Assembly (NCBI GenBank): GCA_024679065.1
Contig: JAGIQG010000016.1
Span: 12,338,001 to 12,402,000 of the forward strand
Reading direction: 5' to 3'
Length of the DNA stretch: 64,000 nucleotides
From: Sphyrna mokarran
Lineage: Eukaryota
Shown: piece by piece, positions 2,007 to 59,167 of the stretch
Numbering within the stretch: the stretch's first letter is position 1
Layout of the letters: the number at the start of each line of letters is the position of its first letter
The notes under the pieces: model-generated
The model's database searches: none
What the model was told of the DNA's origin: nothing
Seen by the model: only the letters and a program-made list of their open reading frames with translations
Position numbers and translations under genes: made by a program

Positions 2007-2033
2007 CTTTGTCTTTTTCCTTCAACTTGTTTT
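2007..2033 (-). CDS. Coiled-coil gene microexon, 27 nt, type A: (E)NKLKEKDK
   Basis: gtttgttcatcacag|aaaacaagttgaaggaaaaagacaaag|gtatgt. Canonical AG/GT, phase 1-1, homologous to 48571-48597 and 41752-41778. Confidence 0.85.
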
Positions 2034-2471
2034 CTGTGATGAACAAACATGCTGATTTCACTTATGTGTTGGAAAATATTCCGACAAATGTGACATCATT
2101 CTAATCTGACTTTTACATTAGTATTAAGTGCATGCAGAATAACATGTTTAAGTTCTGTCCATAATTATAAAAGCAAACAACAAAATCGAGGTCTATTAAA
2201 AATAAAATGGACATTGGGAACCCTACAATTAAAAGTGAAAGGTAAGTTCTGTACAAAAACCGGACATCAACATTCTGTAAGCAAAGCGATTGATGAAATG
2301 TTATTACCAATACTGAATCCAAAACAAATCCAATCCAAAGTTGAAAAGAGAAAAAAAAAAGCGAAAACGTAAGCAGGTTAAGGTTCAATTGAGGTGTCTT
2401 GGGAGAAGAATGACATGAACGAAAAATACAGCCGAACTTCAAGAAGACATTAAGTTTGTTATGTTCATGTA

Positions 2472-2473
<2 letters not shown>

Positions 2474-2513
<40 letters not shown>
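2474..2513. repeat. (TG)n microsatellite
   Basis: Direct observation. Confidence 0.98.
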
Positions 2514-2516
<3 letters not shown>

Positions 2517-2696
2517 TGGAAGCACAGCAGAACAATGTATTTTTTTTGTCTCAAATTGGCAGTGCAATGGAGGGGGGGTGGTGACTAGGAATCCTGCGAG
2601 AATTGGAAATCACTCGGTGGACAATTGCTTTTGTTTTGGGAGAATCAGGACTCATTGTTTCCAAAACGAGTGTCACAAATCACACTATCACACTAT

Positions 2697-2936
2697 ATCG
2701 TGCGCACCGGGCTGGGACAATAAGGACCATTGTCTACCATCATTGTCGTAATTTACCCCTTATTTATCCATTCGATATACCATATCCTTCCTTCGATAAT
2801 GCTCTCGTTTTCCGACAGATTCCACAGTCTGGTATGTTGAGTTGCTAGTCATGCCCTGATATCAATGATGTTTATTAATGGTAACAATATCACGCTTCTA
2901 TATGCCAATCCACAACTTTAACTTAGTAGAGTTATC
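2697..2936 (-). repeat. 240-bp inverted copy of 4017-4256
   Basis: Reverse complement matches 4017-4256 with only a few mismatches. Confidence 0.95.
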
Positions 2937-3729
2937 ATTGTTTCCAAAACGAGTGTCACAAATCACACTATCACACTATATCGTGCACTATCGGGTGATA
3001 ATGTGAGTGTTGTTTGCAGCTGTGCACGCACCAAAAAGAAACCAAAGAATCCTGTCGATATTTGGCAGGTAAACAGAATTTTATAAGCATGGCGATTTTT
3101 TCCTGGCCAAACGAGTTGTGAATTTATATATGGATAGAAATATCTACAAAGCAGAATTATAATATAAATGTTTTAATATTGTGGCTTGATGGAATTCTAA
3201 GACGAGGAATGTCGAAAATAGTAACCTGAAAACAAACGTTGAGGTTGAATAGAGAAACCGTGAACGCTAAGTATAAAAATGCAAGGAAACGTGAGGCTAA
3301 TAAATGCTGATTTTGCGACATTAATGCCCAAAAATTCAGATATGCAAATAACATATTAGGTACTGCAAATATGAAGCAAAAGAGACATTTTTGTCTCTAC
3401 AATTATGAATAAGTCATGAATAAAGACAGACGATTACTGAATCACTGTCGAAGAATAAAGTTTTAATAAGACCAAGGAAATTGCGATGTAAAATAGCAAC
3501 ACCAACTTGAATTACATAAAGTGGAATGATAAAACTAATTGTAGTCAGGTGTTTAGAATTTCTGTCATTGTTGAAATTATGGGACAGGTCAAATATTTTG
3601 GAAAGCAATATGCGTATTTATGAAAAGAATAAGACTTTCCACACCTAAGCCTTTTCACGTGTTGGCTGAATACATCTAGACAATACCAACTCCAAAATCT
3701 GAACTGTAATGCTGTTAAGGGAGCCATGA

Positions 3730-4300
3730 TTCGAAGGTTAGCTGATGGGCTTCACATTTCTGGGGAAAGTGGGGTATGTACAATCGGGAAAAGCTGGTCC
3801 TGAATCAATTTGGGAACAATAGTGTTGCAAAATGATTTGGTGGGTAGTTGGGTGTAGTGCCAACAAGTTGAGCAGGTGATGGAGAACTAGAATGTTCAAA
3901 AGAACGAGATACGTAATACCACAGTAAAGGAAGAAACTCAGAGTCAGTTCAGAAGTTTTGAGTATCAAGAGGGTAAGGCAAGCGTGGGAGTCCTTTACTT
4001 TAATCATAGTCTAACAGATAACTCTACTAAGTTAAAGTTGTGGATTGGCATATCGAAGCGTGATATTGTTACCATTAATAAGCATCATTGATATCAGGGC
4101 ATGACTAGCAACTCAACATACCAGACTGTGGAATCTGTCGGAAAACGAGAGCATTATCGAAGGAAGGATATGGTATATCGAATGGATAAATAAGGGGTAA
4201 ATTATGACAATGATGGTAGATAATGGTCCTTATTGTCCCAGCCCGGTGCGCACGATTAGGAGTACAACACGCCGTGGGACGTCACCGGCAGTTGTTCCGT
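3730..4300 (+). mobile_element. Decayed CR1 LINE, ORF1 end and ORF2 endonuclease start
   Basis: Relics GF.F.GKWG.YN..KL.LN (ORF1 end) and VLYFN.SL...LWIG...DIVTI (endonuclease N-terminus); many stops. Confidence 0.7.
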
Positions 4301-4449
4301 GAGATTCACGTTGGTTTTCCGGGCCTGCAAACATCCCCCAGGATCAAATTTTCAGCAGAATATCATAGGCGCTGAAGATCGATGTGACGACAATGTTAAC
4401 ATATTAATAAAACTTACACAAGAAAACATAGAGTACCAACGTCACTGTT

Positions 4450-7400
4450 GCCAGTTCCTCCCCTCTGATGGGAATCTCTCCATCTCTGGTGTTACGTCAC
4501 GATGACTCCATTTATTCCTGCCCAATAAAAGTCGGAAACTGGCGTGACTGCACTGAATAGGAATGAGAATGTAAATGGCACAGAGCTACAGCACGCAAAG
4601 TGAGGGGCGGGGAGAGCACCTGTGGGGGAAGTAGGATGGAGAAAGGGCTTTCAAAGGTTCTGGATAAATTGGGAAATTTGATTGACTGCTGAAAGTGCAG
4701 TGCCCAGGCACACACATGTTCCATTTTTCTGCCAGCGGGGTGGGTTGACGTTTGTTTTTGACTCTCCATTCGTGGTACTACTGATTCCAGCCACCGGTAT
4801 GATTCATAATCTTGCAGTGGGGTAGGTCGAGTGTCCTTACAGAGTACCAGTGGGATTGTTGTTTCCAGACACATCGTTGATCCATTTTTCAGGCTGTAGA
4901 GTGAGCTGAGGCTCATTTCTTTGTGCTGGTGGTTTTCGTGGATGTTAGGGAGACATGTGTTGATTGAGGGCTCATCAAGTCAGGAAGTTTTTTTTAAAAT
5001 TTCTTTTGAGGAGAGGAGCTCATGTTATATCAGAGAAACAAAATGAAAAACAAAACAAACTTGATGCGATCTGGAGACTGCCCTGCCAGTAAGCCGGACT
5101 TTGAACACATCCCTGCAAGAAAATTGATTAGTTACACCAGTGACAATGGCTGAAGTATGCAAAAATGTAAAGCTTGCAAAATAAACGCATATCCTCCCAC
5201 TTCCACCAGCAGCCACAACAACGATGGCAAGCAACCTTTTCAGATGATCTATGACGCACGAAATTGTATATGTTCACAGCATCCACAATTCGGGACATTT
5301 GTCTCAATGTGGGGCAGGGAGTTCGGGAAACAAACAAAAAAAAGAAAGCATGTATCTCTCACTCTTTGTCTCTCTGTATTACCCACTGGGCAGATAGCTT
5401 TCGAACTTATACTCATGAAGATGGTCATCATTGTAGCAACTGTTGAAGACGGGGAGGCTTGTCATATAGCCATTGGAATGTAAAACAGTGTCAGAAAAAA
5501 AGACAGGAAGATCTGAAGCAGCGGGTGAGACCCACGATGTGCTGCAGGAATCTAATCTTGGGAAAGGTCGCAGATAGAGACAGTACAGAACAAGATGATA
5601 CCTGAAGTGCGTGCTGACACTATGTGCTTGCATCGGTTCCTTCTTGCCGGGAGACAGAGTGGCACCTGTGTCGTGTATTCACAGAACTGGCACATCCAGG
5701 CAAGTAGCGCAAACAGTAAACATGAGGGTTGACGACCCTGAACTGCTATGCCACTGAAGCGTTTTGGTGGAGAGAACTCTACACACAGCTGTTTCAAAAA
5801 TGTTACCGATTGTTTGCAGAATCAGCTTAGGTGCATGTACTTTGATGTTGGTCAAGTCGAAAAAGGGAGTCTGGAGCTGCACGTTTCGCCACTCGAGCAC
5901 GCATGTCCCTTGTGCATGTATTTGCAGGGTGGTGGGCGCATAGCCACCTGTGGTCCAGTCAATTTGAGCGAAAACCATTCGCAAACAGGATGGGTTATTT
6001 TTTCTTGCTCATCGGCTCTTAGTTTTATGACTGCAGACGACTATTCAGGCATTTGTGAGCATGACATCCAGGGAATATTCATATTAGTCCCCAGGTTCTG
6101 TGGAGTTCGGCCATTCCTGCGCTGTTTGACTTTCAGCCAGGCTGCAGGAAACGCTCATGAAGAACAGAGATAATCCATAAGATCATGGCTGTTGGCACCA
6201 TTGCATTCTTCTGAGACCAATGCGGACAATCACTGTGATTAGACTCATGTTTCCACGGTCCGTTGTGAAGTGGTGCAATGTCAAGCTTAAGAAGTGGATT
6301 TCTTTGGGGATTCCCTCCAACAGGTTGATGAACCTGGTTCCGCTGTGCTTGTGAGTCTTTGATTAAGGCTGCAGGTTGATAGAGACTCATTCTAAGGTTC
6401 TGGGATCCTGCCCTTCTGGCACCTGATGTCTGATTAAACACTAGTATCTTGGCTAATTTGGAATAAGGTTTGTGATCAGAAATCTTTGGATAACTGAGTC
6501 GGTATGCGAAAGTTGGGGGAACATGTTATGCTGCGCTATATCACACTTGGTCTGATGGATTCTTGACGAAAGCAGAACAGATACATTTTAACTTTTGATT
6601 GAGGGATAAATGTTGCGCAACATGACGGTCTGCAGCTTGAAGTCTGGAACTGGTACACTCTGCACTGAGAGAATAAGAGGCAAATTCTCACAGTTGTGTG
6701 GTGCAGAGATAACTTGTAATAATTATTTAAACGTTTAGAAATGCCTTCACCCCATAAAGATGAGATGTCCTCTTATTGACTCTCCAACTGTCTTAACTTC
6801 CATGCAGCCTCCAGAATGTACAAAAGAGATATCATCCGTGCCCTGTGGTCTGTGATGCCCTGGGATGATGTCCCCAGTTCGAATGGGAACTGGGCGGCTA
6901 CAACCGACTTGTGGGTGGTACTAATGTTGCCATGGCTTGATGTTTATCTGATAGGAATAACGGGGATTTAGAAGATCTCAGGACGTATGGAGTCTCTTAG
7001 TTGCATGGGCCTTCGACATGGGCTTCAGCCCCTACATTGGGACGTTCTGTGGGACGCCAGAGCAGCTGGACTAAGTTCCATCTCCCTTGGAGTCAACTCA
7101 ATTTGCTAGCCTTGAAGTCAATGATCCTGCTTCCCCATTGTTCGTGTTCCCTCAGCGCTAGACCTCTGAGACTTTGTGAAGATTTGGACCCCCATCGCTG
7201 CAGTATTCCCTGCATTACTAAATCTAAAAATCAATATCAGATAGGTCCTTGAACCCAAACAACATTGTGACCTAAAACTGAGACATACAGCGTCTCCTAA
7301 ATCCCTGCTAGAGGCCCTGTCATGGGGAATCCTTCTGCTATCCATCACCATGAAAATAAGTGGCTTCAGATTTGCAGAAACAGTCACAGCCGGAGAGTAT

Positions 7401-8895
7401 AGTGCTCTGCGATGGCCCACTATGTCTCAAGGAGGCTTTGCATCTGCCGCACATGAGGAGGAAGCGCTAGCCCGACTTCCCACTGTGAATGCTATCTTAA
7501 TGTGTTAACCTTGGATTCACGTCATGAGAGCATCACCTCCTGCGACAACACTGCATTTTCATTTCAAAACAAACTTGTAGGCGCAGCACGATTGCTAATA
7601 GCCCATTCACAATTAGCCGGGTCGACGAACTCAGCTCCACCAACTTTGTGATGTCCAATCCCAGAGGACATATCTTGGGAAGGGTTGAATGCTCTCATCC
7701 AGCAGCGTGTCCGAGCCATTGGGCGTTACCACCTGAATCAGATGTGCATCAATGGCTGTGATTGTTCACTTTAAAACGAACGAGAAGCCTCACCACTCTA
7801 ATTCTCCATCTCATGATCATTCATGTGTTGGTGGTTGTATCACAGATGCCTGTGGTAGTTCACTGGTGCATTCTTCACAGGATTCCTCAAGGCTTCCCAG
7901 CGAGGAATCATCAAAACGTTATAGAGACTGTCAGCAAAAAGAGAGCTGCTATGCCGACACTGATATGGCATTGCATATCAGGATCCATAAGAAGAAAAGT
8001 CACACTGCGATATCTAATTGCCTTATGGAGCGAATCCAGCTGAAGTCAGCCTGTATCACTTATGGACCAATTAGATACATTTTCTGATGAATGATTCACA
8101 GGCTCGCCGGTTTCGATAGAGGTGAAGCATCTACAAAGCTGTTGATTGACTTATTTAAACAAGTCACTGTTTCTGAGGAGACGTGCAATCATAAAACATC
8201 TCATCAACAAAGATCTTTGCAGTAGTGATTGGGTTAATGAACTTTGTAATAATTGGAAAATGAAACAAAAAAAAGTGCAATTTGCATGCAGCTTGTTTTC
8301 AATTAAGTCAGATAGATGCAACATTTGTTTTTTTATGTGCCCAGACTGAGAGGCTGCAGCTGCCCTTGCTGTTGTAAACAAGTTTATGATAGTCGGTTCA
8401 GAAATTTGGCTGGCCCAGCTCGTTTCTATGTTTGTGTCTTTAATTTGGGGGATTTTTGCAAACACAGTGAAGCTTGCATGCCCTAAATGTTATCCGTTAT
8501 GTACTGCTTATGTGCCGTGTAACAGCATGTTATACACATTATATGCTATACAACGTATGCACGGATGGTTAAACCGGCCCGTTAACTTGTCTCCTCGTCT
8601 TGTGTATTAGCTAAGGGCTAATCAAACACAATTGCGGCCTTGAGATAACCACGAAGAATCAGCGAGGCAGCCATGTTCCCACGATGGAGGACAATGCACA
8701 TCGTCTGAGAGGGAAACTGAGAGGCTGAGAAGATGCAACCATAACTGTGGGGGGGGTAATAAATGTATGGTCTTAAGTTGTGTTCGGGGAGACGGCTGGG
8801 GAATCGCTGCTAGGTCCCAGGTGTATGTCCCAAATTTTTTTGAATAAACTTGTTGTACTTTGACTCAATTGGTCTCAGAAGTATATTTTTCCACA
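4450..8895 (+). mobile_element. Highly decayed endogenous retrovirus (class I-like) with integrase, env and 3' LTR relics
   Basis: Frameshifted relics in retroviral order: ELAHPG...FWW (integrase Zn finger, ~5680-5780); RE.I.RF-G-IP-like (~6380); GP...GRQSSW GPY/F-like (~7000-7080); env-TM-like CC-TY and DWVNEL..NWK (~8130-8260). Confidence 0.55.
8488..8895 (+). mobile_element. Putative 3' LTR of the ERV
   Basis: TGT start and CCACA end; TATA-like taataaa at ~8757; aataaa at ~8843. No partner LTR seen. Confidence 0.5.
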
Positions 8896-8943
8896 ACTGA
8901 CTGCGCACGGGTTGTTCTGAATTGGAGATTGGAAAGTAAAATA

Positions 8944-9237
8944 GGGTGGCATTGTGTCACAGTAGTTTGTATTGATGCCACACAGCATCATGGGTCCAGA
9001 TTCAATTCCCGACTTGGGTCACTGTCTGTATACACATTCTCTCTTTATCTCCCTGAGATTCCTCTCGGTGCTACGGTTTCCTCCCAGAGTCAAAACGTGT
9101 GCTAGTTAGGCGCAATGACCATGTTAAAATCTCCTTCCAAGAAAACAAGAACCCACCTTAGTTGATGACTAGGGGATTTGCACAGTTAGTTCATTGCAGT
9201 GTGATTGTAAGCCTACGTGTGACTGATAAATGAGTTT
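8944..9237 (+). mobile_element. tRNA-derived V-SINE (HE1-like) with L2-type 3' tail
   Basis: Degenerate A/B boxes (gggtggc...ttcaattcccgacttgggtcactgtctgt), V-domain ggtttcctccca, tail ttcattgcagtgtg.ttgtaagcctac. Confidence 0.75.
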
Positions 9238-9583
9238 TAGAACATAGAACATTACAGCGCAGAACAGGCCCTTCGCCTTCGATGTTGCGCCGACCAATTA
9301 GGAAAAAGCAAAGACCCTCTAACCTAAACCATTCTCTTTTCGTCCATAAACTTATCTACTAACCTCTTAAACGCCACCAAACTTGGCGCGTCTACAACTG
9401 CAGCAGGCAGGGCATTCCATACCCTTACCACCCTCTGGGTAAAGAACCTACCTCTGACATCCGTCCTATAACTACCACCCATTAATTTAAAGCTATGTCC
9501 CCTCGTGCTAGCTTTCTCCATCCTAGGAAAAAGGCTATCACTCTCCACCCTATCTAAACCTCTAATCATCTTATATGTTTCAA
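9238..9583 (-). mobile_element. Young 5'-truncated CR1 LINE 3' end
   Basis: ORF 9324-9569 is 74/81 aa identical to the end of ORF 16312-17052; ctatgttct tail. Confidence 0.95.
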
Positions 9584-9614
9584 TATGTTTCTTTTAGTTT
9601 ACCTGTAATGTTCA

Positions 9615-9830
9615 AAAACCTTTAATGTGGCGGGAGTGGAGGTTGGCAGAGGCCAGCTGTGCGGCTAACAATGTACAGGGAGAGATAGACGCATGGCCAG
9701 CTAAGTTCATGTGACAGTTGTTTCAGAGGGACTAAGTGCATGTGATGTGCATGCATAGTTTCGGGGAGAGGATGGAGTCCTTAAACGATATCACGAATGT
9801 ACCACCGACTGGCCTTTTGAGAAGACAACT

Positions 9831-9861
<31 letters not shown>

Positions 9862-10270
9862 GGCACGCGCACGCGCGCGTGAGCGTATGTGTTGGTGATG
9901 GGTGGAGGGTAGAGGGAAGAAAGAGTGAAAGGCTAGCGGTTTTCCCGGAAGTGGGACGAGTGAGGTGCCGGTGTGTGAGAGAGAGGCCAGTGATATCCAT
10001 GGCGGCGGTGGTAGTGGCGGTGGTGGGGGAGGGGGATGGTTGGGTGGTGGGGCGGGGGGGGGGGAGTAGGTGTGGCGTGGAATTGTGAAGCCCACGATGT
10101 CAGTGATGTGTTTATCTTAGGGGGCAACCATGGAGCTAGAAATGTACTTGGGACAGCCTGCAGGTTTGTGAGAGGTAATGTAATTAATTGTAGGGGAATG
10201 TGTGCACCGAAATCCCAGATTACACAAGGGCGCACTCTACCCGCTGATTAAGTCCACCTTGCGGAAATAG
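9615..10270 (-). mobile_element. Probable Harbinger transposase 5' relic
   Basis: SQKASRWYIRDIV resembles the HARBI1-family SQxxxxRCIRxV motif; GC-rich. Confidence 0.35.
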
Positions 10271-10769
10271 CCGGTATTCATGACTAGTCTGAGTAATTCG
10301 CTCTATGGCACTCTGCCGTTCTCACATTTCTGAGATTTGTTCAGATGATTATGATATTAAAAAAATAATCTTGAGGAAACGTCCATGTTTTTGCACACGT
10401 TGCAAACATAGATTAAAATAAATAAATAAATCCCACCTGATATATGTGATGACTGGTCACAAAGAGGTTTTGCCGGTCAAATTACGCATGCAAGGGCGAA
10501 TAGCAGGTTGGGTCGGAGGTGGTGGTGGGGGCAACTTTCATATGTGCACTATAATATTAAAGGCCTCCATTGAGTCGTCTAGACGGGTCGTATTGCAGTA
10601 AAAATCAGCTGGGAATTTCAATTCCAGGAACACAATTTGGGATGCTCACAGTTGCAAAGTAAGGGCGGAGATTTCTTGAAATATATCCATTTGTATTTTT
10701 AATCAATATGTAGACGGTTCTTGTGGGGGTGGGGTTTATCTTTTTTTCTGGGGAGGAATACCAGACAGT

Positions 10770-11095
10770 TGCTCGAATCACAGCACTGCAGAAGGAGACC
10801 ATTTGGACGGTAGAGCCTGCATGGCACTAATTTCACTTAGGTTCTATTACACAGCAAGAAAACAATTTTACAGCTAGTCTCCCTGTTATCACGGGGAAAA
10901 CTAGCGTTTCAAAATACCATAACATACACTTCCTTGCAGTGTGAGAGTAAAATGATCATAGCGTCTGAATGAACTCCATACAAACACACGTAGGGCAGAT
11001 AAGCTCTATGCCGACAGTAACCCGAGGTCATCAGTGAACACGGTTTCCTGGAACTGTGAGGCAACACATCTAGTGGCAGCGCCAACGTGCGAGCC
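10770..11095 (-). mobile_element. Decayed SINE (V-SINE-like)
   Basis: Reverse-strand tRNA-like head (gacagtaacccgagg...ctggaactgtgaggca) and a CR1-like tail. Confidence 0.5.
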
Positions 11096-11199
11096 ATTGA
11101 TCACTGTGGCAGTGGAAAACTGTTTTGGGATTGAGACTACTTCTTGAAAAAAAATGTGATGCTACAGCTGGAGCATTGTTACAGTTATGATCGCCACAC

Positions 11200-12362
11200 T
11201 ATCAGAAGCAAACCCATTGTGCTGAAGTTGGTGCAGAAGACATTTACCAAGGCGCAACTTGTGATGAATTATTTCTAGTATAAAGAGTTTACGTAAGCTT
11301 GGGTTGTTGGCATTGGAGCAAATAAGATTGAGAACGAGCGGATTGAGGTTTACAATATTTTGGAAACATGTAAGTAGTATAAACAACAGCTGTTACCCTC
11401 AGTTGAAGGATCAGTCACAATGGGGCTCATTTCATGATTAGGGACAGGAGGTTAAGCGGGGATCTGAGGGAAAAAAAAGAACAAACAGTCGTAATTGTCT
11501 TGACTGTGCTGCCGTCGAGAATGGTGGAAGAGGGATGTATCAAATACGTAAAAAAATCTAGATGAACACTTGGTATTCCATGACATCGAATACTGTGTGC
11601 CAGATGATGGTAGGTGGGAGTAGATGGGAGTCAACGTTTCTCTCATGCTTTGATGCAAACTCGATGGCCGAATGGCCTCTATACCTTTTTGCTTCGATGA
11701 GTCTCTGATTCTATGAGTAATTTTAGTACATATCTCATATGGACAATGGCAAACGTGGACTGCAGATGAAAGCATTTGATTGGCATCTTAAGTAAACAGA
11801 CATGGACTGTCGAAATTGAAGGGGAAGAGGCATCTCATTGTATGCAGTTCCGTATGGGAGCAGTTGCGGACAATAATAAAGCAGGACAGATTGCAGGTCA
11901 AATCGATATTTCATTTTGGGGAGGGGGCGTGGGGTTTCAATGTAGAAGCAATACGTTAAGGGAAACTGGACCATGGATATCTGGTGCACTTCCCGACTGT
12001 GCGAAGAAAAAAAGAACGTCCTTTGCATATCCACATGGAAAAATTCAGCAGCACCGAGAAAGGAGTATACAAATTGTGTGTGGGAACTTAAGAAATTAAT
12101 GAGATGAACAAAAAAGGGAATGAAAAAAGTTATGTGAAACAGCGTAGAATCTAAGACATAATTCTTAAATAAATTACTGGGAAGATATTTATCAGAGGTA
12201 TACGTCAGCCTATTAGAGAGGAAGTGAACAATGCATGTATGAAGCAACGTGCGTTGAAAAAGATTTCAAATGAAGACTTATCTTTGGTCTTCACTTGTGT
12301 AAAGAAAATATAGGTACAATATGAAGAAACTGGGACTATGAAGAGCTATGACGAAGAATATG

Positions 12363-12401
<39 letters not shown>

Positions 12402-35535: not shown

Positions 35536-35617
<82 letters not shown>
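35536..35617. repeat. (TG)n microsatellite
   Basis: Direct observation. Confidence 0.97.
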
Positions 35618-35621
<4 letters not shown>

Positions 35622-45760: not shown

Positions 45761-45909
45761 ACGACTTCCATTTGCAGGATTTACTCAGTTTAAAACATAT
45801 CTGAAAAAAACAAATCGCTTAATATATGATCTGATTGGAAAATACTTTTAATGGTACAATATAATAACTATTCACAAGTAGGAACAGGACAATCAATTGC
45901 TCCACTCGC

Positions 45910-45936
45910 CTTCTTTTAATACTTTTATTTTCTTTT
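45910..45936 (-). CDS. Coiled-coil gene microexon, 27 nt, type B: (E)KKIKVLKE, GC donor
   Basis: ttttttttgtcgctaacag|aaaagaaaataaaagtattaaaagaag|gcgagt. Non-canonical GC donor in an otherwise strong AAG/GCGAGT context. Confidence 0.72.
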
Positions 45937-46499: not shown

Positions 46500-47530
46500 T
46501 TATCTTAAACAAAATTGCATTTATGTGTCAAATCGTTGAATACAGCAGTTGGGACGTCTTGTTGAAGTTGTAAAAAGACAGAGGTGAGACCACATCTGGA
46601 ATACAGTGTACAGTTCTCGTCACTCGATTATAGAAATGATATCGCTAAACGAGAAACAATGCAGAAGAGACTGCCTGTAGGATGCTACAGGGACATGAAA
46701 GATGGAGTCACACAGAGGTGTTGCATTGACTGGAACTTTTTTTTTCTCTCTAGAGCGAGGGACGCTAAAGCTTGATCTTATAGAAGTCTATAAATTAATG
46801 ACGGATATTGATCAGCTAGAAAGTCAATATCTCTTGCCAAAGTTACGGGAGTCTAAAACTAGAAGGTAAAGTTTCAGGTAAAAGGGGGAGATGCGAAAGA
46901 TCCAGAGAGGCATTTGTTTTTAATTCAGAGAATGGTTTATGACTGGATCAAACTGCCAGATGTAGTAATTGAGTTGCGTCCAATTTTGTCTTTTAAAATA
47001 CATTTAGACATGGATAAGATGAGTACAGAGGGATATGAGCTCAATGCCATCAATTAAAAGTAACTGAAAAGTTAAAAAGGGCTACAATGATAAATTGGGC
47101 CGAAAGCCCTATTTCGATGGTGTAACCTTCTGTGGCTCTAAGACTCCAAGTATCTCCCCTTAAAACACAAACCGATTATCATAACTGAGTACCCCAGTAT
47201 CTGTGCTATCGTTATACAATTGACACGAAACTGAATTGAACCAACAGTTCAATTAAACCCTTCAGATGCATTTTTTTATGTAATGCCCCTTAAATAAATA
47301 TTCACAATGGAAGACTTTTTTTTTGAATACGTGTTGCATTTTCCTTTCGTGCAATGGACGAAGCCAAGGAGTTGACACTTTAGGAGCTTTCAAGCGGTTA
47401 TTGGATAAGCGCATGGAGCACTCCAGAATGATAGGGAGGGAGTCGCTTGATCTTGGGATTGGACATAGCCCGGCATAACATTGAGGGCCGAAGGGCCTGT
47501 ACTGTGCTATAATGTTCTATGTTTTTATGT
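46500..47530 (+). mobile_element. CR1 3' fragments (46500-47140 and 47370-47530)
   Basis: VRPHLEYSVQFSS motif; tail gagggccgaagggcctgtactgtgctataatgttctatg. Confidence 0.8.
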
Positions 47531-47728
47531 TTCTGTGTAAGTCTGGTAAAACCATTGAAAATGCATAAAAGTATGTAGGTAGAATCGTGAAAAAATCCAT
47601 GTTATAAATTAGATATTGTACTGTACATTTTTTCCAACAATTCAATTCTGTATGATAAAAAATGCCTCATCAGCACAAAATGCATGTGTTCTTGTCTGTG
47701 AGCCAGGAAATAACGAGTTTATTCTCAC

Positions 47729-47764
47729 CGAATCCTTCGCTCATGATGATGCACGCAGCCAGCT
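47729..47764 (-). CDS. Coiled-coil gene microexon, 36 nt, divergent type C: (E)LAACIIMSEGF
   Basis: ttttcatttcgttcacacatag|agctggctgcgtgcatcatcatgagcgaaggattcg|gtgaga. ELxxC start conserved, second half divergent. Confidence 0.72.
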
Positions 47765-48570
47765 CTATGTGTGAACGAAATGAAAATATCAGACTGTGCA
47801 TAATAACTTTCTGCTTGTTTTCTTGAGTAAGTAGCAAAGCTATGGCATCAACTCACATTTTGATATCCGGAAATGAAAATATGATGCGTTGTACAGAGTC
47901 GATATTTCCTCTTGAATACGAGATTGTGTTGTTGAAGCTTAGTCCCTAAAACCTGGATATCCTGAAGACTTAAATCAAGAAAGTTTGAAAAGAGCACTTC
48001 CGTCATTATATGTCACGATCTCAGTTCAGCAAATATTCATTAATTGCTTACACCAATTCAGGAACGTGAGCAGCGAGAGCTTAATCTTTAAAAAATGGCA
48101 GTCGGGAGTTTATAACCATCCAATCGGATAACATATAATCACAAACTTAGGCCATTAACTATAGGCAATCCTTCCTGTTCATTTTTTGACTGCAGGGGGA
48201 ATCTTGCAAACTGGCGAAAGACCACACAGACATGGGTACAAAGTAAATATTCGTCACAGCTCGGCGAGACTGCATTTTATCATGAAATCCTGAAGGTGAG
48301 GAGCAAAACTATTAACCATTGTACTATCGTTCTGACCTGTCAGAACATTAGTTGCATAAATGTAAATTCTGCACAATAGATTCAAGAGATTAGCTGTTAA
48401 GTATCATTAAATCGCTTTCTTTTGCATTGAGTGTTGAATCGAACAGATGCTAACAAACGTTTAGCCCATTGCTCCAAGATACTCTTTTAAATTATATCGG
48501 ATATTGCGATATACGTTACATGCGAAAAAAATGTAGCTGGGCGAATTCGGAAAACAATGTTAACAGGTAC

Positions 48571-48597
48571 CTGTTTCTTTTGCCTTTAATTTTTCTT
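48571..48597 (-). CDS. Coiled-coil gene microexon, 27 nt, type A: (E)EKLKAKET
   Basis: cctttaatctttacag|aagaaaaattaaaggcaaaagaaacag|gtacct. Confidence 0.83.
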
Positions 48598-49968
48598 CTG
48601 TAAAGATTAAAGGTTTGCACAACTTTGCATCAGTCGCAGGATCACATGCAACTTGATGTGTTTCACTATTACGCGACGTTGTGTTAACATTACTAACGGA
48701 TAAAATGTAGAAATATGATTAAAACGCTATCATTCTTTCAGTCACAGACTCGAATCAAGCTGAGGAAAGGCAACGAAACATACTGTAAGGTTAGTGTAAA
48801 TAAAACTAATCATTCTGTCAAAAATGTTGCAATCGTAATATGCATTTTATTGCCACTGTTTTAGTTTATGTTAATCATATAAAAAAAACGACTTTTCCTT
48901 GTTGCAAGTGATGATCTTAAAATCGAGCCATGTCTTGGAGCTTTCGTTCACGCGTCACAGAAATAAACAGTACATTCTCAGATCGACAGAATCGTGTTCT
49001 GTTTTCCGTGCGACTGATCAAAATAAAACTGTATTAAAATAGACAGCAAGCCACTGGAAGCAAAGTAGCATCGGGTTGCCGTATCATAGATACTTGTTAC
49101 AAAGTTGAGGGGCGGCGAGGTGGAGGGCGGATGCGATCGGTGGAGAGAGCCAATAAAATCGCTTACAAAGTAAACTGAAGAAGGAGGCTCAGACCCAGAA
49201 ATGTTCGCATTCCAGACAACATACGATGACCGGAAAAAACATATATTCCGCATGTGAAAAGAATTGCTCGTAGCATATCTTGAAAGAATGAAAAAAAGTG
49301 ATTAGCACATCACCGATTTTTTTAAGAATCCATTCCAATTGTAGTTATATCTTTCGATGAAATTTTGATAAATAATACCCCGTGGAGCAGCATTTTCCTT
49401 CATGGTGTGGCCAGCGATCAGGAATTGTTCCCGCGAGTATATGCCATGGAATTTTTTGAAGCGCAATTTAATAACTACGTGGTCTATTGGTGGTTATATA
49501 TTTAGAATTACATAAATTGTGGAGAAAGTTCCATGCCTAAATCGTCGAGGGAGTAGGTTGGAATCCCTCCTGAAACGGTTAGGATTTTGTGGGGTTTCGT
49601 TTGTTGGGCAGCTGTCTGAAGTCTGAGTGGGATCATAAGAATATATGGCCACTGTCTTGATCGGAACTGTCATTTATTATAAAGTTGTGTTTCCAGCACA
49701 TTTACCTTGTGCGTTCACGTGCAATGCGTAGAATTTATAAGTATTACCGTAGTAAAAGCATGTTATTATTAGCTGAACTTTGATAGCACAGTTTCTGGTT
49801 ACAGGCAAAAAATAATGTACTAATGTTTTCGTTTTTCTTTTCTTCCTCCCGAACGATGGTCGAGATTCTGAGAAATATGGTACATTCAGTAAAATGGTGT
49901 TGACCACTATTCAGATATAAAAAAAAACTTGATAATGTGGTTTACAATCAGAAAAAAAAAACAAAGAT

Positions 49969-50170
49969 GGGGCTTGTCATGCCATTTATCCGGATTATCC
50001 TGTTCCGCCCAAAATAAAACCCAGCCCACGACTTTCTCGCCGACATGGGGTCACATAAATGAAAGTTCCCATTCACAGGGCAAGGACCATTGAATCCTAC
50101 CATTTGTAAGCGGGTCCACCCTGCCACTGGCCAGGAACCACACAACAAGTAGGCCGGAGAATTCTGTTTA
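49969..50170. mobile_element. Possible MITE (Harbinger-type)
   Basis: Short GC-richer segment ending ggccggagaattctg. Confidence 0.3.
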
Positions 50171-51919
50171 ACATTTTGGAAAAAAAAAACTGCCGCTAAA
50201 ATCTGATAGTTTGTGAATTCAAACTGATTGTGAACTTCACATGTATTAAAACAAAACAGTTACTGTCCATTTGCTAATCGTTTAGTTATAATATTATTGC
50301 ATCCAATAATTTATTCAACATATTGTTTATATATCTTCCGATGCATTGATTATATTTAGAAATGCTGACACTTCCAAAGTCTTATTTGTTTGCTTAGAAA
50401 TGAGCTAAAGTGATAAACAAAAAAGTGATCTCCTTCTGATTTTGATATGACTCATTGCAAAACCATGTTGAATTACCATGAGAACTCTTCCGTTTCAATG
50501 TACATTGTTAAAAAAATTCTTTGAATGAGTTGTAGAATGTCAAGTGAGTGTGTCATGCAATATGTCCTATTGCTTCTGGTTCCGATTTCTCAAATCTGAC
50601 TTAATTTCATAATTTAAAAAATACTCCAGTGTCCTGAGAATTTTGGGAACTTTTGGATACCGGATGCCTTGTCGTGGCTTTGTTTTGAAATTTACAGCTT
50701 CCATGTCTATAGAAACAACATTGTTCGAACGAGGAAAAAGATGCTGCCTGGTGTCTTGACGGGTGTGACATTAAATTAGTAATAAAATCACAAATGTGAT
50801 CTTTAAATTGTGACATGATTCTCTTGCCAAAGTTGTGATCAAATAGTATGATGAATATGCGCCTCAAAGAAGTGTGTGTATGTACCGAGAACTGTTTCAT
50901 TTGAAATCAGTAATGGGGAAAATGGAGGATCGTGATTATTAATCTTTGGGTCTATCTGAATTTGATCCATGCTTGGACCAGTTTTCTTCAAAAACTCAAA
51001 ACTAAAAATAAGTGGAGAACTACTGAATACAAATAGTTCTGGAGAGGGGATACAAAGGCTTACAAAACAGATCGCTATGAGCCAATTGCAATACTGATAT
51101 TGAAGTAATAATGCACAGAGTTGCTGGAATGACAAAGGCACCAACATTAAAAAGAAAACAACGAATAGACTCCAATAAATAAGATAAAACTGATGAAATC
51201 AATGTCTCTTTGCATAAGTACACGAATATTCAGTACATCAAATAGAAATAAATGGCTTAAATTGAGATTTATGGATATGATCATACAACCATTTCAAATA
51301 CATTGTTACAAGGAAATCGAAACTCAACTGTCACTTTTCGGAATTGTGTGCATTCCCAAGGAGAGACAGGAATAGATAGATTTTGCATAGCTTTGTTGGT
51401 GCGAAATATAATTAAGTAAGGTAGGTAGAAACTATGTGGAAGCAATCTGGGGAGAGGAGATAAGCTTGATGACCAAGAAAATAGGGGGAAGAAAAGCTTT
51501 GAGTGTTAAGTAGCACACAATAAAAATGTGCAATAAGCACTTCGGCTGTTATGAAGAAAACTCAAAAGAAAAAAAAAGAAAGATGGTACCATAAAAAATG
51601 TAATGAAGTTGGAATTTCAGATCAAAAATACGCATTCGAGAAGGAAGACAATAAATCTATACTTGATAACCCACATTGTTGCTGTCAATACTTTGCAAGA
51701 GATTGACCCCTGATAAATAAATAAATAACAGCCGAGTAGAATGAAACAAAAAAATGGCATTTTGACGATGGCACTGTCTTAGTATTGCAGGGTGCCACAT
51801 GAATTCACAGGAGACAGTGATAGGTCCTACATTATTTACAGCATGTGTTAATATACATTGGACGAGGGTGTGAATGCAACATTTCAATGTTTGCATTTAA
51901 CACAAAAAAAACAGGTGAG

Positions 51920-52200
51920 GTGTGAAATCATAGTGGCACTGTTGTTAACACTGCTGTTTTACAGTGTCAGGGACCCGTGGCTCAATTCCAGAGTCGGGTC
52001 ACTGTCTGGGATTTGCATCTTCCCCATTTGTCTGTGTTGGTTTCCTCCGAATTCTTCGGTTTCCTCCCACAGTCTGAAAAGAAAACGCGTTGCTTCGGTG
52101 CATTGACCTGAGGAGGTGCCAACGGGTGGCGACGAGAGTAATTTGCTGTAGTTTCATTAAAGTATTAATGTAAGCCTTATTTGCGACTAATAAATGAACT
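51920..52200 (+). mobile_element. V-SINE with L2-type tail
   Basis: gtcagggacccgtggctcaattcc...gggtcactgtctg...ggtttcctcccacagtc...taatgtaagcctta; same family as 8944-9237. Confidence 0.8.
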
Positions 52201-52449
52201 TCAAATTTAAGCGTAGAAGGCGGCACGTGGGTTTTCACGGCTTTGGTCGAGCAAACACTTAAATTCCGGTCCGAGGCCAAAGGACACTTCCCTTGTCCGC
52301 GAAACGCCTGCCTTCATTCAGTAACAGGCGATCTATTCAAATTCCAGCTCAAATATCGGCAGACCGTTACGTGGGTATTTAGCAAGTGATTTTAAAACAT
52401 TGGCAAATGCAATTTTGCGTCACAAATGTACACATTGTGCACCTTTGTT

Positions 52450-53290
52450 AGGATCATGAAGGACCTAGAAAGTATTTCCATGGAGAATGGAGATAGAATG
52501 TGTAGCATCGTGGGATTTTTGGGTCTCGCCGCTAAATCGCAACAACTTAGTAGGAACGTTCAGCAGGTAATATGAAAGCCAGAAGGAACATTGTCTGAAT
52601 TTCAAAAGGAATGCAGTGCACCAAAAGTTAAGTCTTGCTGTGGTGACCAGTGTTTGATTCCACCGACGATTGTCTGTTTGGAGTCTGCACGTTCTGTCAG
52701 TATCTGCCTGAATTTATTTCGGACGCTCCTGTTTCCTTCCATAAGCCATCAATGAGCATGTGGACTATAAAAATCCTTGTCGTTGCAACTTTTGTAAATT
52801 AGCAAGGATATACGTAGGTTCATATGAATTGGCATTGGGATTTAACAAAAAAAAATGCATGGACAATTTGGGCCAAAGGATCTGTTTACATGCTCTAAAC
52901 CTCTATGACTCTATGGGAGATTGAGAATGAGAGGCGACTTTTTTGAGATAGATGAGATTCTCTCGCCGTCTGAAACTGTGGGACGTTATGCCTCATTCTG
53001 TTGGGATTCCGCGATCAGAATGCATAATCTCAAAGATGGTCACCATTAAAACAGAGATAATTCGACGTTTTCGGAGCGCGCTGAGTCTGCGGAATCTGTA
53101 AATGCAGAGTGCTATCATTACTCATTAAATATGTTCAATGCAGAGATAGCAGAATTGTTTTTTCAATAAAGAAACCAAGGGTTAATGTTGCATTGGGAAA
53201 GCAGAGTTCTGGATTATTATCAGATGACTCACCATCTCTCCGAATGGACGAACAGCCTTCATGAACAATTGCCTTACCTCTGCTGCACAT
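52450..53290 (+). mobile_element. Old CR1 3' fragments with a nested SINE piece
   Basis: CR1 3' relics; SINE V-domain gtctgtttggagtctgcacgttct at ~52672. Confidence 0.55.
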
Positions 53291-54070
53291 GGTTTTGTCA
53301 CGTAATCTACTGTATTTTTAGTGGGATACCCTTTCATTGTAACGCGAATGCACATCAGTGAATGCAAATTCTGAGAAATACTAATGGCATTCTTCGCCAC
53401 AGTACCCTTTGTCTTTATATAATGAAACAGTGTGCAGCCGGAAAAATAAAGAGTAAACTTGAACTGTATCTGTACTAATTACGTGCCATGCTAAATATCT
53501 ACATTTGTCTCTCATATTCGAGTATAGTCTGATGCTTTTGAAATCTGGCCATTTACTGTCTCTTATCATTGATATAACGCTGTTTTCTTTCACATTTGCT
53601 GATGTTCTTCCGCAGAGAGAAAAAACATCATTTCAATTGAATAGAGCATCAGGTCTGCTTCAACGACATTGTCGCGACGGAAGACTCATATATCTTAGAA
53701 GGTCAAGTGCAACTGAAACCGTGAAACATTATCAGTTTATCTAACTTGCAAGGCCTTCGCATAAACCTGAGTTCGATTTTCCTATCCTTCACTTGCGATC
53801 AGTCAAAGTCTTGGAAATGTTAAAACAAATCTGGATATTCATACCGGATGTGGGCAGCGGCTCAATAATGTATTCCCCTGCTACATACTCAGAGCCAATA
53901 TCGGGTGAGAAATTATTGCCCATGCATGCAGCCATACATACATTGTTAATAATTAAGTAAAATTTCTAGAACGAGGGGCATGGGTGAGGATAGGAATGTT
54001 AGAAATATGGGAGAGGCACGATCCAGTAAATGTTTTCAGAGTGAGTTACTGTTGAAATCTCAGCAACTAC

Positions 54071-54106
54071 ATAATCCAGTGTTTTTGGTAAGTGGGACAG
54101 TTATGT
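54071..54106 (-). CDS. Possible additional 36-nt phase-1 microexon (D)ITVPLTKNTGL
   Basis: ttttacttttcacacag|36 nt open|gtagtt. Right length and phase, but no Cys, contains Pro and has a weak donor. Confidence 0.25.
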
Positions 54107-56778
54107 CTGTGTGAAAAGTAAAATACGTCCAATTTGCAATCATCGTATATTGCAAAATAAAACTAAATAAATTCCACGGGAATTCAATCTGTGCTTCGGG
54201 TGGCTGTTGCGTATTTCGTAACACAGACATAAATTTTCCCAAGAGTGACAAAACAGTCTTTTTTAAAAAGTCGTATGTTTGCCGAAACATAGAAATATAT
54301 AAGATTCATTGACAAAAAATGTTGGAAAACTTCAACCGGTCTGAAGGGTCCACTGGTGCTGTAATAGAGCAGCCGTTCGATTCTGGACGACATTCCTTTA
54401 GAGCTGACGGCAAATCACCCAGTCTTGATGAATGATACAATGCCTTTGGACGTCGTGAATCATCTCGATTCAAATTATTTCCAGTTTTATCTTCTTCCTT
54501 GATTAGCGTAACGCTGCAAGTCCTCAAGTCTCAAAGCGATCGGCCTGAGAGTGGTATCTTGATTTGGGATGTGAAGCATTTCGTGACATAGAGACCCTCA
54601 GTCTTTCTGTTAGCTATCTGCAGCAACAAGATAACCAATCCCGGTAGGGTCATCGGACCCACTTAACTACTTTTTTTTAAGAAAAAGCTTATTATGTTTC
54701 TCTGGAAAGACTGAAGATCATTGATCATATTTTAGCAACGCTTTATAAATCATAGTTACGACCTCGATGAAGTAAAATTATCTATGCATTTGTTTCGTCT
54801 GATTGGAATCAGTCAAGATTCGTTGTTTGGTTCTTGAACGCTCTGCCAAACAACGCATGTGTCTCCGCCCACATTAAATATTAAGCTGTAAATGTTAATA
54901 TTCGTAGCGCGTATGCACTCAATCGTTCCTTCTACATAAAAAGGCACATATGTTAGATGATAGACTGCTCGGAAATTTCAATCCTTCAATCTTTATTCTC
55001 CTGGCATATATTAGAAATTTATTCGCAGTATGTTTTTTTTTCTAATTTTGAAACTAAAACAATAGTCTCTTTTCTTCCCCCCTAGGCCCATTCGACTTTG
55101 CCACGCCGTGAGTTTTATTATAAATGGAAAATAATTACACTTGAAAATGAACATTAATTCGGTTGAACAATTAGACACTTTTCAAAGAAAAACTGGAAAG
55201 TAGAAATTGGTCAGGTATGTTTCCCTTCTCAAAACTCATATGGGGCGCTGCGAGAAGAACAACACTCCAATTCCTGAATGTTTCGTTGTGCTTGGAAAGT
55301 GTAAAAAAAATCTAAAAACTCAATCTTAACGATGATAGTAACCGAGGAACTCAGAAAATGAAAGTTTTTGGCCCTATTAATTTGGAGAAAGCATTCAATA
55401 CGTGATAAACGTTGATATAATCAGAACAAAGAAAGATGGGATAATGATTAAAGCGTTATCATCGTTTTTAAATACACAAGAAGGGGCAGGAATTTCCAAG
55501 TTAACAAAAAAAAAGTTACAAGATTATCCATGTCATTGTACAGCTGTTTTATTACCCATGTCAACAGTGGGAGCTATATTTCATGGCCGATGAAGGCATT
55601 GGAAGCTGAATTCTTGTTTATCAGAAACATCATTTTTTCGTGTGTGTGTGAGCAAACAGTGCTTCATTTCAATCGTATTATTACTGATAAGAGATCTGTC
55701 AGTATTTGTCCTACCAATGCTGTAAACGCTTGCTACTAATGGGAGTTACTTAACGGGATGTTCCTTTCTCTTGCTGACCATTTCTTTTCAGATTGTTTAA
55801 GTCCTTGGAGATTATGTCATTTTGCAGCTTTGAAGGGGAGGAGTGGATGTTGTGTGTATGTGCATGCGTGTGTGAGGATTTTTCTGTGTGTGCTCGCATG
55901 CGTCTGTCAAATCAGAACCAGGATATTTTGAATATCGTTTGCAAAGAACCTCATCTTTGCGGGCGGTTCCACTCATTTCATTGGATTAGAAAATTTCTTC
56001 CATAATGCGCAGACATACGGCAGAGTGTTCTTTTCACAATGTGGAGTCAACTTACATTTCTGAGGAGACTCAATACCATTTTCGCTGGCGATTTGCTATA
56101 TAATTGGAGTGACTCAAATTCAGCTCAAATGAAAAAAGGCAATTATTTGAGTTTGTCATTATAAGTATGTCAGTTATGGAAAAAATGTCTACGATTTCCA
56201 ATTGGGTTGGAACAGCATTATCTAGGGCGAGGATAAACTAGTTTTTATAAATTACAAAATAGCATCCAGTTTATGTCGGACAACATTCGCAAGCAGAAGT
56301 GGAAAACACCCGAAGCAACACGTGGAAATTAATGTAATAATCAGTACATCATTAAGAGATATGATGACAACAAGAACGAATTCCAGTACTGCTATAATAA
56401 TGCACATTGACAACCTTTTTTAATCATGGTGATCTCATCATTGTACCAAGTTTCACGACAAGATTCGTGAACTCATTCTCAGGTAATGCCTGTAAGCGAT
56501 TTTAAATTGGCAGTGAGGATACAAAAGGTGGAATGTAGAATACGCATTGTGGTAACATTGGAAACAAGTGAATGTTAATCGTACGTTAATTAATCTTAAG
56601 TTAATAGTGAACGCCCTGGCAACGACACGTGTTTAACAGAAAATGTCACAGTAGGTTACATTAATTTGTCTATTTCGTTTATTTGTTTTATTGATTAATT
56701 TGCGTTGATACGTGCATACACGAGAAAGATGCTGAAAAGCAACTGCGAATCAACGGAAATGGAATTTAAAGACAACAC

Positions 56779-56804
56779 CTTTTCCCTCTGGTTTAGAGCA
56801 GGTT
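56779..56804 (-). pseudogene. Defective (26 nt) type-A microexon copy (E)PALNQREK
   Basis: gtatttttgccaag|aacctgctctaaaccagagggaaaag|gtgttg. One base short of 27; sits 320 nt after a type-C exon, similar to the 390-nt C-to-A spacing at 42168-41778. Confidence 0.45.
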
Positions 56805-57124
56805 CTTGGCAAAAATACGTGAAATCTCATACCTAATATTCCATAACTATCTTGCACTGATCACATATCGGTAGGAATTATACAAGTGTTATTTTGTTCG
56901 AGAAAAATACCTTTGCATTTTCACGTGCTGCGTCACAAACTTATACAAAACGGGTCTTATAATTGATTTCCAATGTACATATTGATTCATGAACACATTT
57001 CGTAGAATTTTCGACATCTTGAGACGATGCTTATTGGAATCTTGTAGCACTTGAAGGTACAAAACTGGAATGATAAGTTCAACGATTGTACATGTTTCAA
57101 AGTGATAATTTGCTCACTGCTTAC

Positions 57125-57160
57125 CTAATTCCTTTGAAGCGTCTTGGCAGTTGTATAATT
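57125..57160 (-). CDS. Coiled-coil gene microexon, 36 nt, type C: (E)LYNCQDASKEL
   Basis: cttttcatttaattatgaattatccag|aattatacaactgccaagacgcttcaaaggaattag|gtaagc. Confidence 0.88.
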   Translation of the reverse strand, partial: NYTTAKTLQRN

Positions 57161-59140
57161 CTGGATAATTCATAATTAAATGAAAAGTAAAATACATGTC
57201 CTTGAATTAATTTAGTAGACCCAACTGTTGCATTGACTCCTTTATTCGTTATTACCAATGTAAAGTTCATTTGTTCCATCAAGTGAATACGAGTGCATTC
57301 TAGGCCAACTGACGCTGTACAATTTTATTCTACGAAACCTACGAATCACAGACGCAGTTGCTCCTATGTGCCTCCATAGTTATTTTATGTTTTTAATCGC
57401 ATTCACTTCCAGTACTAGAATTTATAATAACCTCCGTCAATTTCCCACGTTGCGTAAAATAATTTTCCAAACTGCTATATTATTCTTTTTTATCAGAAAA
57501 CTTCAACGTTCTCTGGTTTGGATTTTCCTTATCTGCTAATTGATGAACATTTATTGATCTACTATCTCGGAACTTTGCAAAATATTCTGTTCCAATACAC
57601 ATTCCCCCTGAATTTTCTTTGCTTCTTAAATGTAAAGATTATATATATTATGATTCTGAAACTTCGCTTTAGAATCCGTCAGTCCTTATCGCTTGAACAG
57701 CAGGGCACTGGTCAAGAATCCTGGACCAGAATTTTTGTCAACACTTCCGTACTTGCCGAAAAAAGACTTCCATAAGTATTGTTTGTACCACCTTTTATGG
57801 TGTACCCGGTTTTAAGGGAAACATGGATGTTTTTGAATTTGCTGACAGTTCCCCAAATACGTTTGATGAAGTGAAGGAAATTATCTCTTTCCCACTAAAT
57901 CTTCACATTCCTAAGAATCGTTCTATTATCTAGACATTTTCTCTCCCCATCTATTCTGTTCAATTACATCAATTCTGATGTATATGCTTTAAATTCTAAC
58001 AAAAGCTCATTTGAGAAGCATCAGGCTCATTTATGTCCTGAAATGATTGGCAACGAATCTCGTACAATGAAATTTGGGACAGGTGCCATTTTGAGCATTT
58101 TCTTAACATCAGTTCATGATGGTCCCTCAACAGTACCTCCAGCGGGAACATGATTGGAAGAACATGCATTGAGTTATTTCAAATGATGCTTACAATGTGA
58201 TCATGGGGTTAGCTTCCTTTATACTGAAATTGTGAGTGCACAGCTTCCCTCTGGGCTTGCACAAAAATGGAGGACAAGTATTCCAACTTTTGTTTTCTAT
58301 CAATTAGCTTTTATTTTAATTGTTTCAACTTGACGCGAATGACCGTATTTCAAATATCCGTGCCTTGTCAACCAAACGCTGATGTCTACCTTGGCAATAG
58401 CTTGCCATTGCTATGCAGCATCTACTTTCATGCCAAAATATGTCTCTTTGATCTGATGGAATCTGGCAGTGATGGCCAACGCCAACTGTAGAACAGGGGA
58501 AGATGGGGTGTGGAACAAAATCAGGCCATTATTTTGGGCACATTTACACGTTCTCGGTTGATCGCGTTTAAAAAAAGTGAAACAATAAGCTTTTCCTTCA
58601 ATTTAAACATCAGTCCTCACTGCAACGGGGTCTAAACTAAAATCTGGCAATTTAAACCAGGATTATTTCAGTACACTTTCCTGCGGGAAGCCAATCCCTC
58701 CATTCCTTATCTGCCACGAGCCATTTCTGTGAAATTGGTGCAAAAACTCATTCTGCTCTCTCATTTTTGCGATCTTCTAAAGTCTCTCGTAATGTTCCCC
58801 TTCTTCTGAAACCCATAATAATTTTGCCAATATTGTTTTGCCCCAATCATACAGTGTTTTTTTTAAAATTCTGTCTGTGCTCCCCGTCACTTTTCCAATG
58901 ATATAATTCAGTAAATTCACAACTTTCTTCAAAACTGTGAAATGGTCATGTAGATCCGAAATGTTTGCATTGCATATTTCCACATGCTACTTACATTTTG
59001 ACTTCATACAACATTCTCCTTTAATTGAGATTTCCAAGATCCATGGTAATTTGTATTTCTTTGGTAGAAAAATGCAAAATAAACTAGTCTTGATTAATCA
59101 TTGATGCTTTCAGAGTTTTGCAACGATTGAATATGTTTAC

Positions 59141-59167
59141 CTCTGTTTGCTTCTTCCAATTTCTCTT
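59141..59167 (-). CDS. Coiled-coil gene microexon, 27 nt, type A/B: (E)EKLEEANR
   Basis: tatattctaatag|aagagaaattggaagaagcaaacagag|gtaaac. Confidence 0.8.

Follow-up and report, generated by a model that had tools for sequence, protein, structure and literature searches.

A giant array of coding microexons ending in a B30.2 exon, likely a single gene for a coiled-coil rod protein, in the shark Sphyrna mokarran

The window considered here, i.e., the whole stretch of 64,000 nucleotides (nt) of Sphyrna mokarran DNA that was analysed (C668:12,338,001-12,402,000), lies entirely within what is likely a single minus-strand gene, composed of about 150 coding microexons and one terminal exon for a B30.2 domain. 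In the region examined around it (C668 11.538-13.002 Mb, 1.464 Mb of a 2.77-Gb genome), the microexon array spans from 12,641,645, the most 5' exon found, down to 11,930,493, while the terminal exon, open over 173 codons and preceded by a phase-1 acceptor, lies at C668:11,926,118-11,925,598, 412 kb downstream of the window. Joined together, 150 curated phase-1 exons give 4,425 nt, or 1,475 codons, without a stop across 716 kb; the median intron is 2,955 nt long, 0.7% of the array is coding and the window represents about 9% of its length. A previous sequence-only reading of the window had described 17 of these exons and had placed both ends of the gene outside it: the exons are real, being only about 17 of the roughly 150 in the array, and the ends do lie outside. 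The architecture described here is held with high confidence.

The exon list is a prediction, built from 121 high-scoring exons and 34 more added by hand from relaxed scans; from these 155, five were dropped, two derived from dispersed repeats and three belonging to decaying classes (two of the latter gave stops at junctions), which leaves the 150. In a 153-exon version of the list, 89 exons measure 27 nt and 52 measure 36 nt. The terminal exon matches the SPRY family of Pfam (E 1.2e-16) and, among solved structures, the B30.2 domains of TRIM58, TRIM21 and butyrophilins (E 2e-22 to 1e-16), and it is the only B30.2 exon found in the array, at its 3' end.

The sequence-only reading had claimed a hidden, spliceable minus-strand gene, and all 11 peptides that it named were found on the minus strand, each between AG and GT or GC. 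The other six of its 17 exons (59167, 57160, 47764, 35886, 32526 and 16003) were identified in the present analysis, and the reconstructed set comprises 11 exons of 27 nt and six of 36 nt, 513 nt in total, running from 59167 to 2007. A scan of the window for exon length gave eight strict 27-nt matches on the minus strand vs one on the plus strand. Moreover, an exon model trained on 15 window exons returned, over 664 kb, 116 matches on the minus strand, 16 of them inside the window and 100 outside, vs two weak ones on the plus strand. The microexons of the window are real, far beyond chance, and their splicing in this species is suggested by selection and by the gene models of relatives, both described below. 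The features of the window are the following:

1..64000, minus strand: entire window, within the gene
1..47800, minus strand: most of module 1 of six (upper edge approximate; the module runs about 9 kb beyond the window start)
59141..59167, minus strand: 27-nt microexon, phase 1-1, linker class
57125..57160, minus strand: 36-nt Cys-type microexon
48571..48597, minus strand: 27-nt microexon
47729..47764, minus strand: 36-nt Cys-type microexon, intact here, acceptor lost in three sister copies, possibly decaying
45910..45936, minus strand: 27-nt microexon with a GC donor (GT in five sister copies)
42168..42203, minus strand: 36-nt Cys-type microexon, three copies in the array
41752..41778, minus strand: 27-nt microexon, three copies
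41386..41412, minus strand: 27-nt microexon, six copies, used as module marker
35860..35886, minus strand: 27-nt microexon, six copies
34904..34939, minus strand: 36-nt Cys-type microexon, six copies
32512..32526, minus strand: microexon, likely 15 nt (inner donor); use of a weaker outer donor would extend it to 27 nt, as far as 32500
30994..31020, minus strand: 27-nt microexon, five copies
28758..28784, minus strand: 27-nt microexon, five copies
25709..25744, minus strand: 36-nt Cys-type microexon, five copies
24421..24451, minus strand: inactivated copy of a 36-nt exon, with a 5-nt deletion and no donor left
20157..20183, minus strand: relic of a 27-nt exon with weak splice sites, ending in T
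17957..17983, minus strand: 27-nt microexon, five copies
15968..16003, minus strand: 36-nt Cys-type microexon, five copies
2007..2033, minus strand: 27-nt microexon, five copies

The 11 + 6 set is thus recovered, with two amendments. The exon at 32526 is likely one of 15 nt (32526-32512) rather than 27 nt, as judged from its sister copies: five of five module copies retain the inner donor AAG|GTAAAG and three of them have lost the outer GT, the 3.5-residue periodicity is higher with the 15-nt form in all five, and with this form 36+15+27+27 nt make five heptads. Furthermore, the 36-nt exon at 47764 may be decaying, since its three sister copies have lost the acceptor. Two further copies in the window are unusable, the one at 24451 through its deletion and lost donor, and the one at 20183 through a TAA that would form at the junction with exon 17983. 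The GC donor at 45910 is the only one in the window (six of the 153 listed exons have one) and is likely explained by a GT-to-GC change in this module, GT being present in the five sister copies. Two runs of N, at 20927-21085 (159 nt) and 28354-28520 (167 nt), are both intronic and may hide an exon. On the plus strand, the intron between exons 17983 and 16003 carries a 248-codon open frame (16306-17052), which we take to be, by its resemblance, the C-terminal part of ORF2 of a long interspersed nuclear element (LINE).

From a structural perspective, the joined product is composed of 18% Glu, 18% Lys, 13% Leu, 3.7% Cys, 1% Gly and 0.1% Pro, and its hydrophobic residues keep a register across exon junctions, in line with the coiled-coil rod proposed from the window. 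In the 153-exon list the hydrophobic periodicity at 3.5 residues is 0.95 vs 0.36 +/- 0.05 when the exons are shuffled, none of 300 shuffles being as high; the peak depends on the order of the exons. The core positions are 2, 5, 9 and 12 in the 36-nt exons and 4 and 7 in the 27-nt exons, with Cys at position 5, a core d position, in 44 of 51 exons of 36 nt. As to the spacing of the 36-nt exons (50 intervals), 38 intervals equal 7n residues, seven equal 7n+4 and five are of other lengths; the 21-residue interval accounts for 32, so that 27+36 nt, or three heptads, is the main unit, as had been proposed from the window. We infer that the 36+27 unit reads as a-d-a-d / a-d, with Leu2, Cys5, Leu9 and Ser/Leu/Ala12 in the longer exon and Leu/Ile4 and Lys/Leu7 in the shorter one. 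A nonad or beta-layer reading of the 27-nt unit was dropped, since heptads or stutters account for 45 of the 50 intervals.

Six tandem modules, exons and introns included and placed 57-76 kb apart, make up the array between 12.05 and 12.39 Mb, and each of the five full module intervals holds 12 or 16 exons. Copies with homologous flanks were found for 13 of 16 window exons queried, giving 52 copies, none of which carries a stop or an indel. Among module copies, exons diverge by 11.6% (178/1539, no gap columns) vs 17.4% in introns (2268/13048, 425 gap columns). The ratio of nonsynonymous to synonymous substitution rates (dN/dS) is 0.36 (bootstrap 0.26-0.51; 16 classes, 74 exons) and a neutral simulation would leave 0.56 of the copies intact, both figures coming from a list of intact copies only, so that a contrast class by class is fairer. 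In that contrast 16 exon classes are fully intact and four are decaying, with a frameshift or a lost splice site in 10 of 12 further, unlisted copies; the decaying classes behave neutrally. On these sequence comparisons, the module copies are judged to be under selection.

These features would fit a single gene for a soluble cytoplasmic rod-B30.2 protein, and towards this reading, architecture and scaffold role together, we lean slightly. The product, of up to about 1,650 residues, is predicted to form a two-stranded parallel coiled coil, a rod that would bear both B30.2 heads at the same end. With a coiled-coil rise of 1.48 A per residue, the full-length rod would reach about 220 nm, and its Cys residues at d, if oxidised, could cross-link the two chains. 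The BG zipper protein and enterophilin offer an analogy, on which it might serve as a long tether or as a cytoskeleton-associated scaffold. The gene likely originated from a butyrophilin-type tail (27-nt phase-1 exons plus B30.2) without Ig (immunoglobulin) and membrane exons. Its growth would have begun with duplications of symmetric exons, followed by duplications of entire 57-76-kb modules, and copies that broke register or frame would have decayed.

The gene belongs to a family. Seven B30.2 exons of this type are found in the genome (E <= 1e-31; next best 2e-22), six of them on C668 (8.56-14.32 Mb) and the seventh within a cluster of TRIM and butyrophilin genes on contig C1548, and microexons of the 27/36-nt type lie upstream of all six of the others. 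A giant paralog on the plus strand (C668:11,544,745-11,879,669, >335 kb, its start beyond the region examined) converges tail to tail with the studied gene; fragments of retroelement reverse transcriptase and integrase (L078:6209-8494, minus strand) lie between the two converging B30.2 exons. A further, paralogous plus-strand array (C668:12,790,000-12,990,000) starts head to head with it and shows, near its front, a run of five candidate exons of 21 nt, the size of BG and butyrophilin exons.

Relatives occur in other cartilaginous fishes. The catshark RefSeq model XP_038668997.1 is 71% identical in the B30.2 domain and joins orthologues of the last microexons of the studied gene, while the chimaera protein XP_042192744.1 (1,697 amino acids) shows the same Cys units along an extended coil and the same type of B30.2. 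Two annotations of this chimaera protein differ by 9 or 12 amino acids at eight of 12 indels, and isoform models of ray (XP_069775384-90), catshark (XP_038672306-10) and chimaera relatives differ by pieces of 6 or 9 amino acids; further fragments were found in skate, basking shark and Hemiscyllium. Used as a query among proteins of 933-2,970 residues, the chimaera coil matched only the chimaera protein itself, in its two annotations. The named members are all from cartilaginous fishes (chimaera, sharks, skate and ray), the searches being word-limited or clustered, so that absence elsewhere is not implied. The term lineage-specific used in the sequence-only reading is not supported in a narrow sense, the family not being confined to one species; its term unannotated is partly right, in that the full gene is largely missed, and partly not, since RefSeq holds fragments of relatives under misleading names such as TRIM39-like or nuclear-pore anchor-like. 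In a B30.2 tree of 45 rows, 16 family rows stand on one side of a branch (100/100) vs 11 butyrophilin and 18 TRIM-type rows, in a tree whose bootstrap is not fully settled, in which butyrophilins do not form one clade and from which this genome's own butyrophilin B30.2 exons were left out. A turtle model (XP_074872824.1) has 14-residue coiled-coil repeats between two B30.2 domains; since its B30.2 falls outside the family clade, its similar design may have arisen separately. The literature searched, which excluded subscription journals and the supplements of shark genome papers, where a mention is possible, held no description of the family; PMC12841164, in the part consulted, deals with shark butyrophilins only.

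The same architecture could also serve as an intracellular immune sensor or adaptor, comparable to a RING-less TRIM or to pyrin, in which the B30.2 pair would bind a ligand, of pathogen or host origin, with the rod multimerising or recruiting a partner. The B30.2 similarity to TRIM58, TRIM21 and butyrophilins and the paralog inside the TRIM/butyrophilin cluster speak in its favour, but a 200-nm rod is unnecessary for such a role and the family has only seven copies, with long-lived orthologues, whereas the C1548 cluster has more than 100 B30.2 exons of the ordinary kind; we regard it as unlikely.

A further question is where the protein begins. No 19-residue hydrophobic span exceeds 1.6 in 13 family proteins, vs 2.7-2.9 in two butyrophilin controls, and a strongly hydrophobic N-terminus is absent in 10 of the 13. 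In the C1548 paralog the array ends at 101,490,951, where the N-terminus of its catshark orthologue maps, and no head match was found in the 97 kb past that end, which suggests that the first exon is minimal and carries the Met. Searches (tblastn) with the N-termini of relatives gave nothing above background. A match to ATP synthase subunit f near C668 12,660,800 (L086:8740-8900, minus strand) was rejected as a gene boundary, being a processed fragment inside a short interspersed repeat. The N-terminus bears on the proposal that the rod is secreted, or anchored through a short hydrophobic N-terminal exon, and forms a disulfide-linked fibre outside the cell or on its surface. The prevalence of Cys at core d and the hydrophobic start in the models of three relatives would agree with it; the start is charged, however, in most isoform models of the small members, the catshark N-terminus of the C1548 type maps to the first microexon found in the paralog of this genome, and upstream candidates do not rise above background, so that such a fibre appears rather improbable.

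The start also bears on whether the array is divided into several shorter transcription units or is partly dead, the module of the window not being translated together with the B30.2 end. In favour of this, no start was found, decay affects four exon classes and small relatives have several alternative 5' ends, which makes internal starts possible; against it, the module copies are under selection, the frame is open from end to end and the total length of the chimaera model is comparable, and we consider a split gene quite improbable.

As for folded head domains, which had also been foreseen, none was found: no Ig match was obtained with 19 butyrophilin N-terminal parts, nor a RING or B-box match with 18 TRIM N-terminal parts (tblastn, 1.464 Mb), Ig-family Pfam domains were absent above cut-off from the upstream open reading frames (ORFs) scanned (beyond 12.80 Mb, 44 of 122 ORFs), and SPRY is the sole Pfam family in eight of eight family proteins. 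The same kind of query does find Ig exons on C1548 (E 1e-9 to 1e-17), where at least three true butyrophilin genes (110.04-110.33 Mb) combine IgV, another Ig exon and B30.2 in a span of about 40 kb and share a few candidate 27-nt phase-1 tail exons. A genome search with butyrophilin IgV gave 26 matches (55 candidates scored), none of them on C668 from 3.4 Mb to the contig end. The suggested extension in both directions has thus yielded the B30.2 exon and neither Ig nor lectin exons, the lectin search covering the first 150 downstream ORFs by Pfam, in which SPRY was found. That the gene is a true butyrophilin- or BG-type receptor, with Ig and membrane exons missed or placed farther upstream, is very improbable, the likeness of the tails (short phase-1 exons, then B30.2, as in the parts consulted of PMC5938342 and PMC4046983) being outweighed by these negative searches and by an opposite-strand paralog that begins within about 150-240 kb upstream.

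Returning to the soluble cytoplasmic rod, several points weigh against it or against its details. The analysis yields no binding partner and no tissue; the module copies share ancestry, so their counts are not independent; and among the 34 hand-added exons some are possibly false, as some exons may be missing. The RefSeq models of relatives are themselves predictions, and the first 125 residues of catshark XP_038668997.1 are LINE-derived junk. The tree does not place the family nearer to butyrophilins than to TRIMs, and the best solved structures, TRIM58 and TRIM21, score slightly ahead of the butyrophilins. The start exon was not identified, ab initio scans upstream for starts and signals being noise, with signal-peptide-like candidates at background frequency (13 vs nine on the control strand). 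Finally, a hydrophobic start is present in three of 13 models (chimaera XP_042192744.1, skate XP_055510696.1 and Hemiscyllium XP_060706632.1); two of them, the chimaera one excepted, look like intron read-in before an acceptor.

With some 150 coding microexons over 716 kb, the unit has four times as many as the largest BG tail of the B12 haplotype (36 exons in the portion of PMC4046983 consulted), and annotation largely misses or misnames it. In the array one can follow clearly the duplication and pruning of symmetric exons and of entire modules, and the shift of a splice donor (from 27 to 15 nt) by which the heptad register is kept. Moreover, to the uses of B30.2 in butyrophilins and in TRIMs it adds a third, found in the oldest lineage of jawed vertebrates, which bears on the origin of butyrophilin and BG tails. 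A bolder view, which we put forward tentatively, is that cartilaginous fishes have retained, since before the chimaera-shark split, a family of giant B30.2 rod genes without heads, so far undescribed, in which the 27/36-nt exons of a gene may number about 150 or more and whose products would be Cys-cross-linkable structural filaments or molecular rulers with a length set by the copy number of exons and modules and by exon skipping.

Among known systems, some are readily set aside. Triadin and collagen-type genes with exons of 27/36 nt were rejected, as Gly amounts to 1% with no Gly-X-Y pattern and the gene ends in B30.2; so was a CD23-like type II C-type lectin, an option raised from the window, because the last exon is B30.2 and no lectin was found in the first 150 downstream ORFs. 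TRIM coils are encoded in ordinary-size exons. TRIM proteins with PRY-SPRY (TRIM21, TRIM58 and TRIM39) share with the gene a coiled coil followed by B30.2, provide its best matches among solved structures and lend their names to its relatives in databases, whereas the studied region has no RING or B-box match. Enterophilin-1 of guinea pig is a soluble protein with a long leucine zipper followed by B30.2, its rod being much shorter and the protein mammalian; the likeness is one of architecture only. It has been tied to sorting nexin 1 and EGFR trafficking (in the part consulted of PMC13749957).

The closest parallels are the butyrophilins and chicken BG, an analogy that the sequence-only reading had drawn and that the B30.2 end of the array supports. 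Butyrophilins (BTN/BTNL) likewise encode their heptads in short phase-1 exons, which precede a terminal B30.2 exon of similar sequence, and those of this genome have candidate 27-nt tail exons; unlike the studied gene, with its 150 or so exons, no Ig found in 1.464 Mb and a B30.2 in a separate clade, they carry Ig domains, span the membrane and contain "only a few heptad repeats" (PMC5938342, PMC4046983, as far as consulted). According to the same partial sources, chicken BG has a long coiled-coil tail from many tiny split-codon exons with heptads running across junctions, and a soluble form of the tail, the zipper protein, acts on actin-myosin in brush borders (PMC5938342, PMC4046983). The BG tail exons measure 21 nt (some 18 or 24) and number 13-36 per gene in the B12 haplotype (PMC4046983), with Ig-V and membrane exons ahead of the tail and no B30.2 in the gene structure listed there (PMC5938342, PMC4046983), whereas the studied gene has about 150 Cys-bearing exons of 27/36 nt and a B30.2 exon, with no Ig found. 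By the tests run, with no Ig, RING or B-box match in 1.464 Mb, the gene is neither a butyrophilin or BG gene nor a TRIM, and by analogy it resembles a butyrophilin/BG tail that has been set free and greatly extended.

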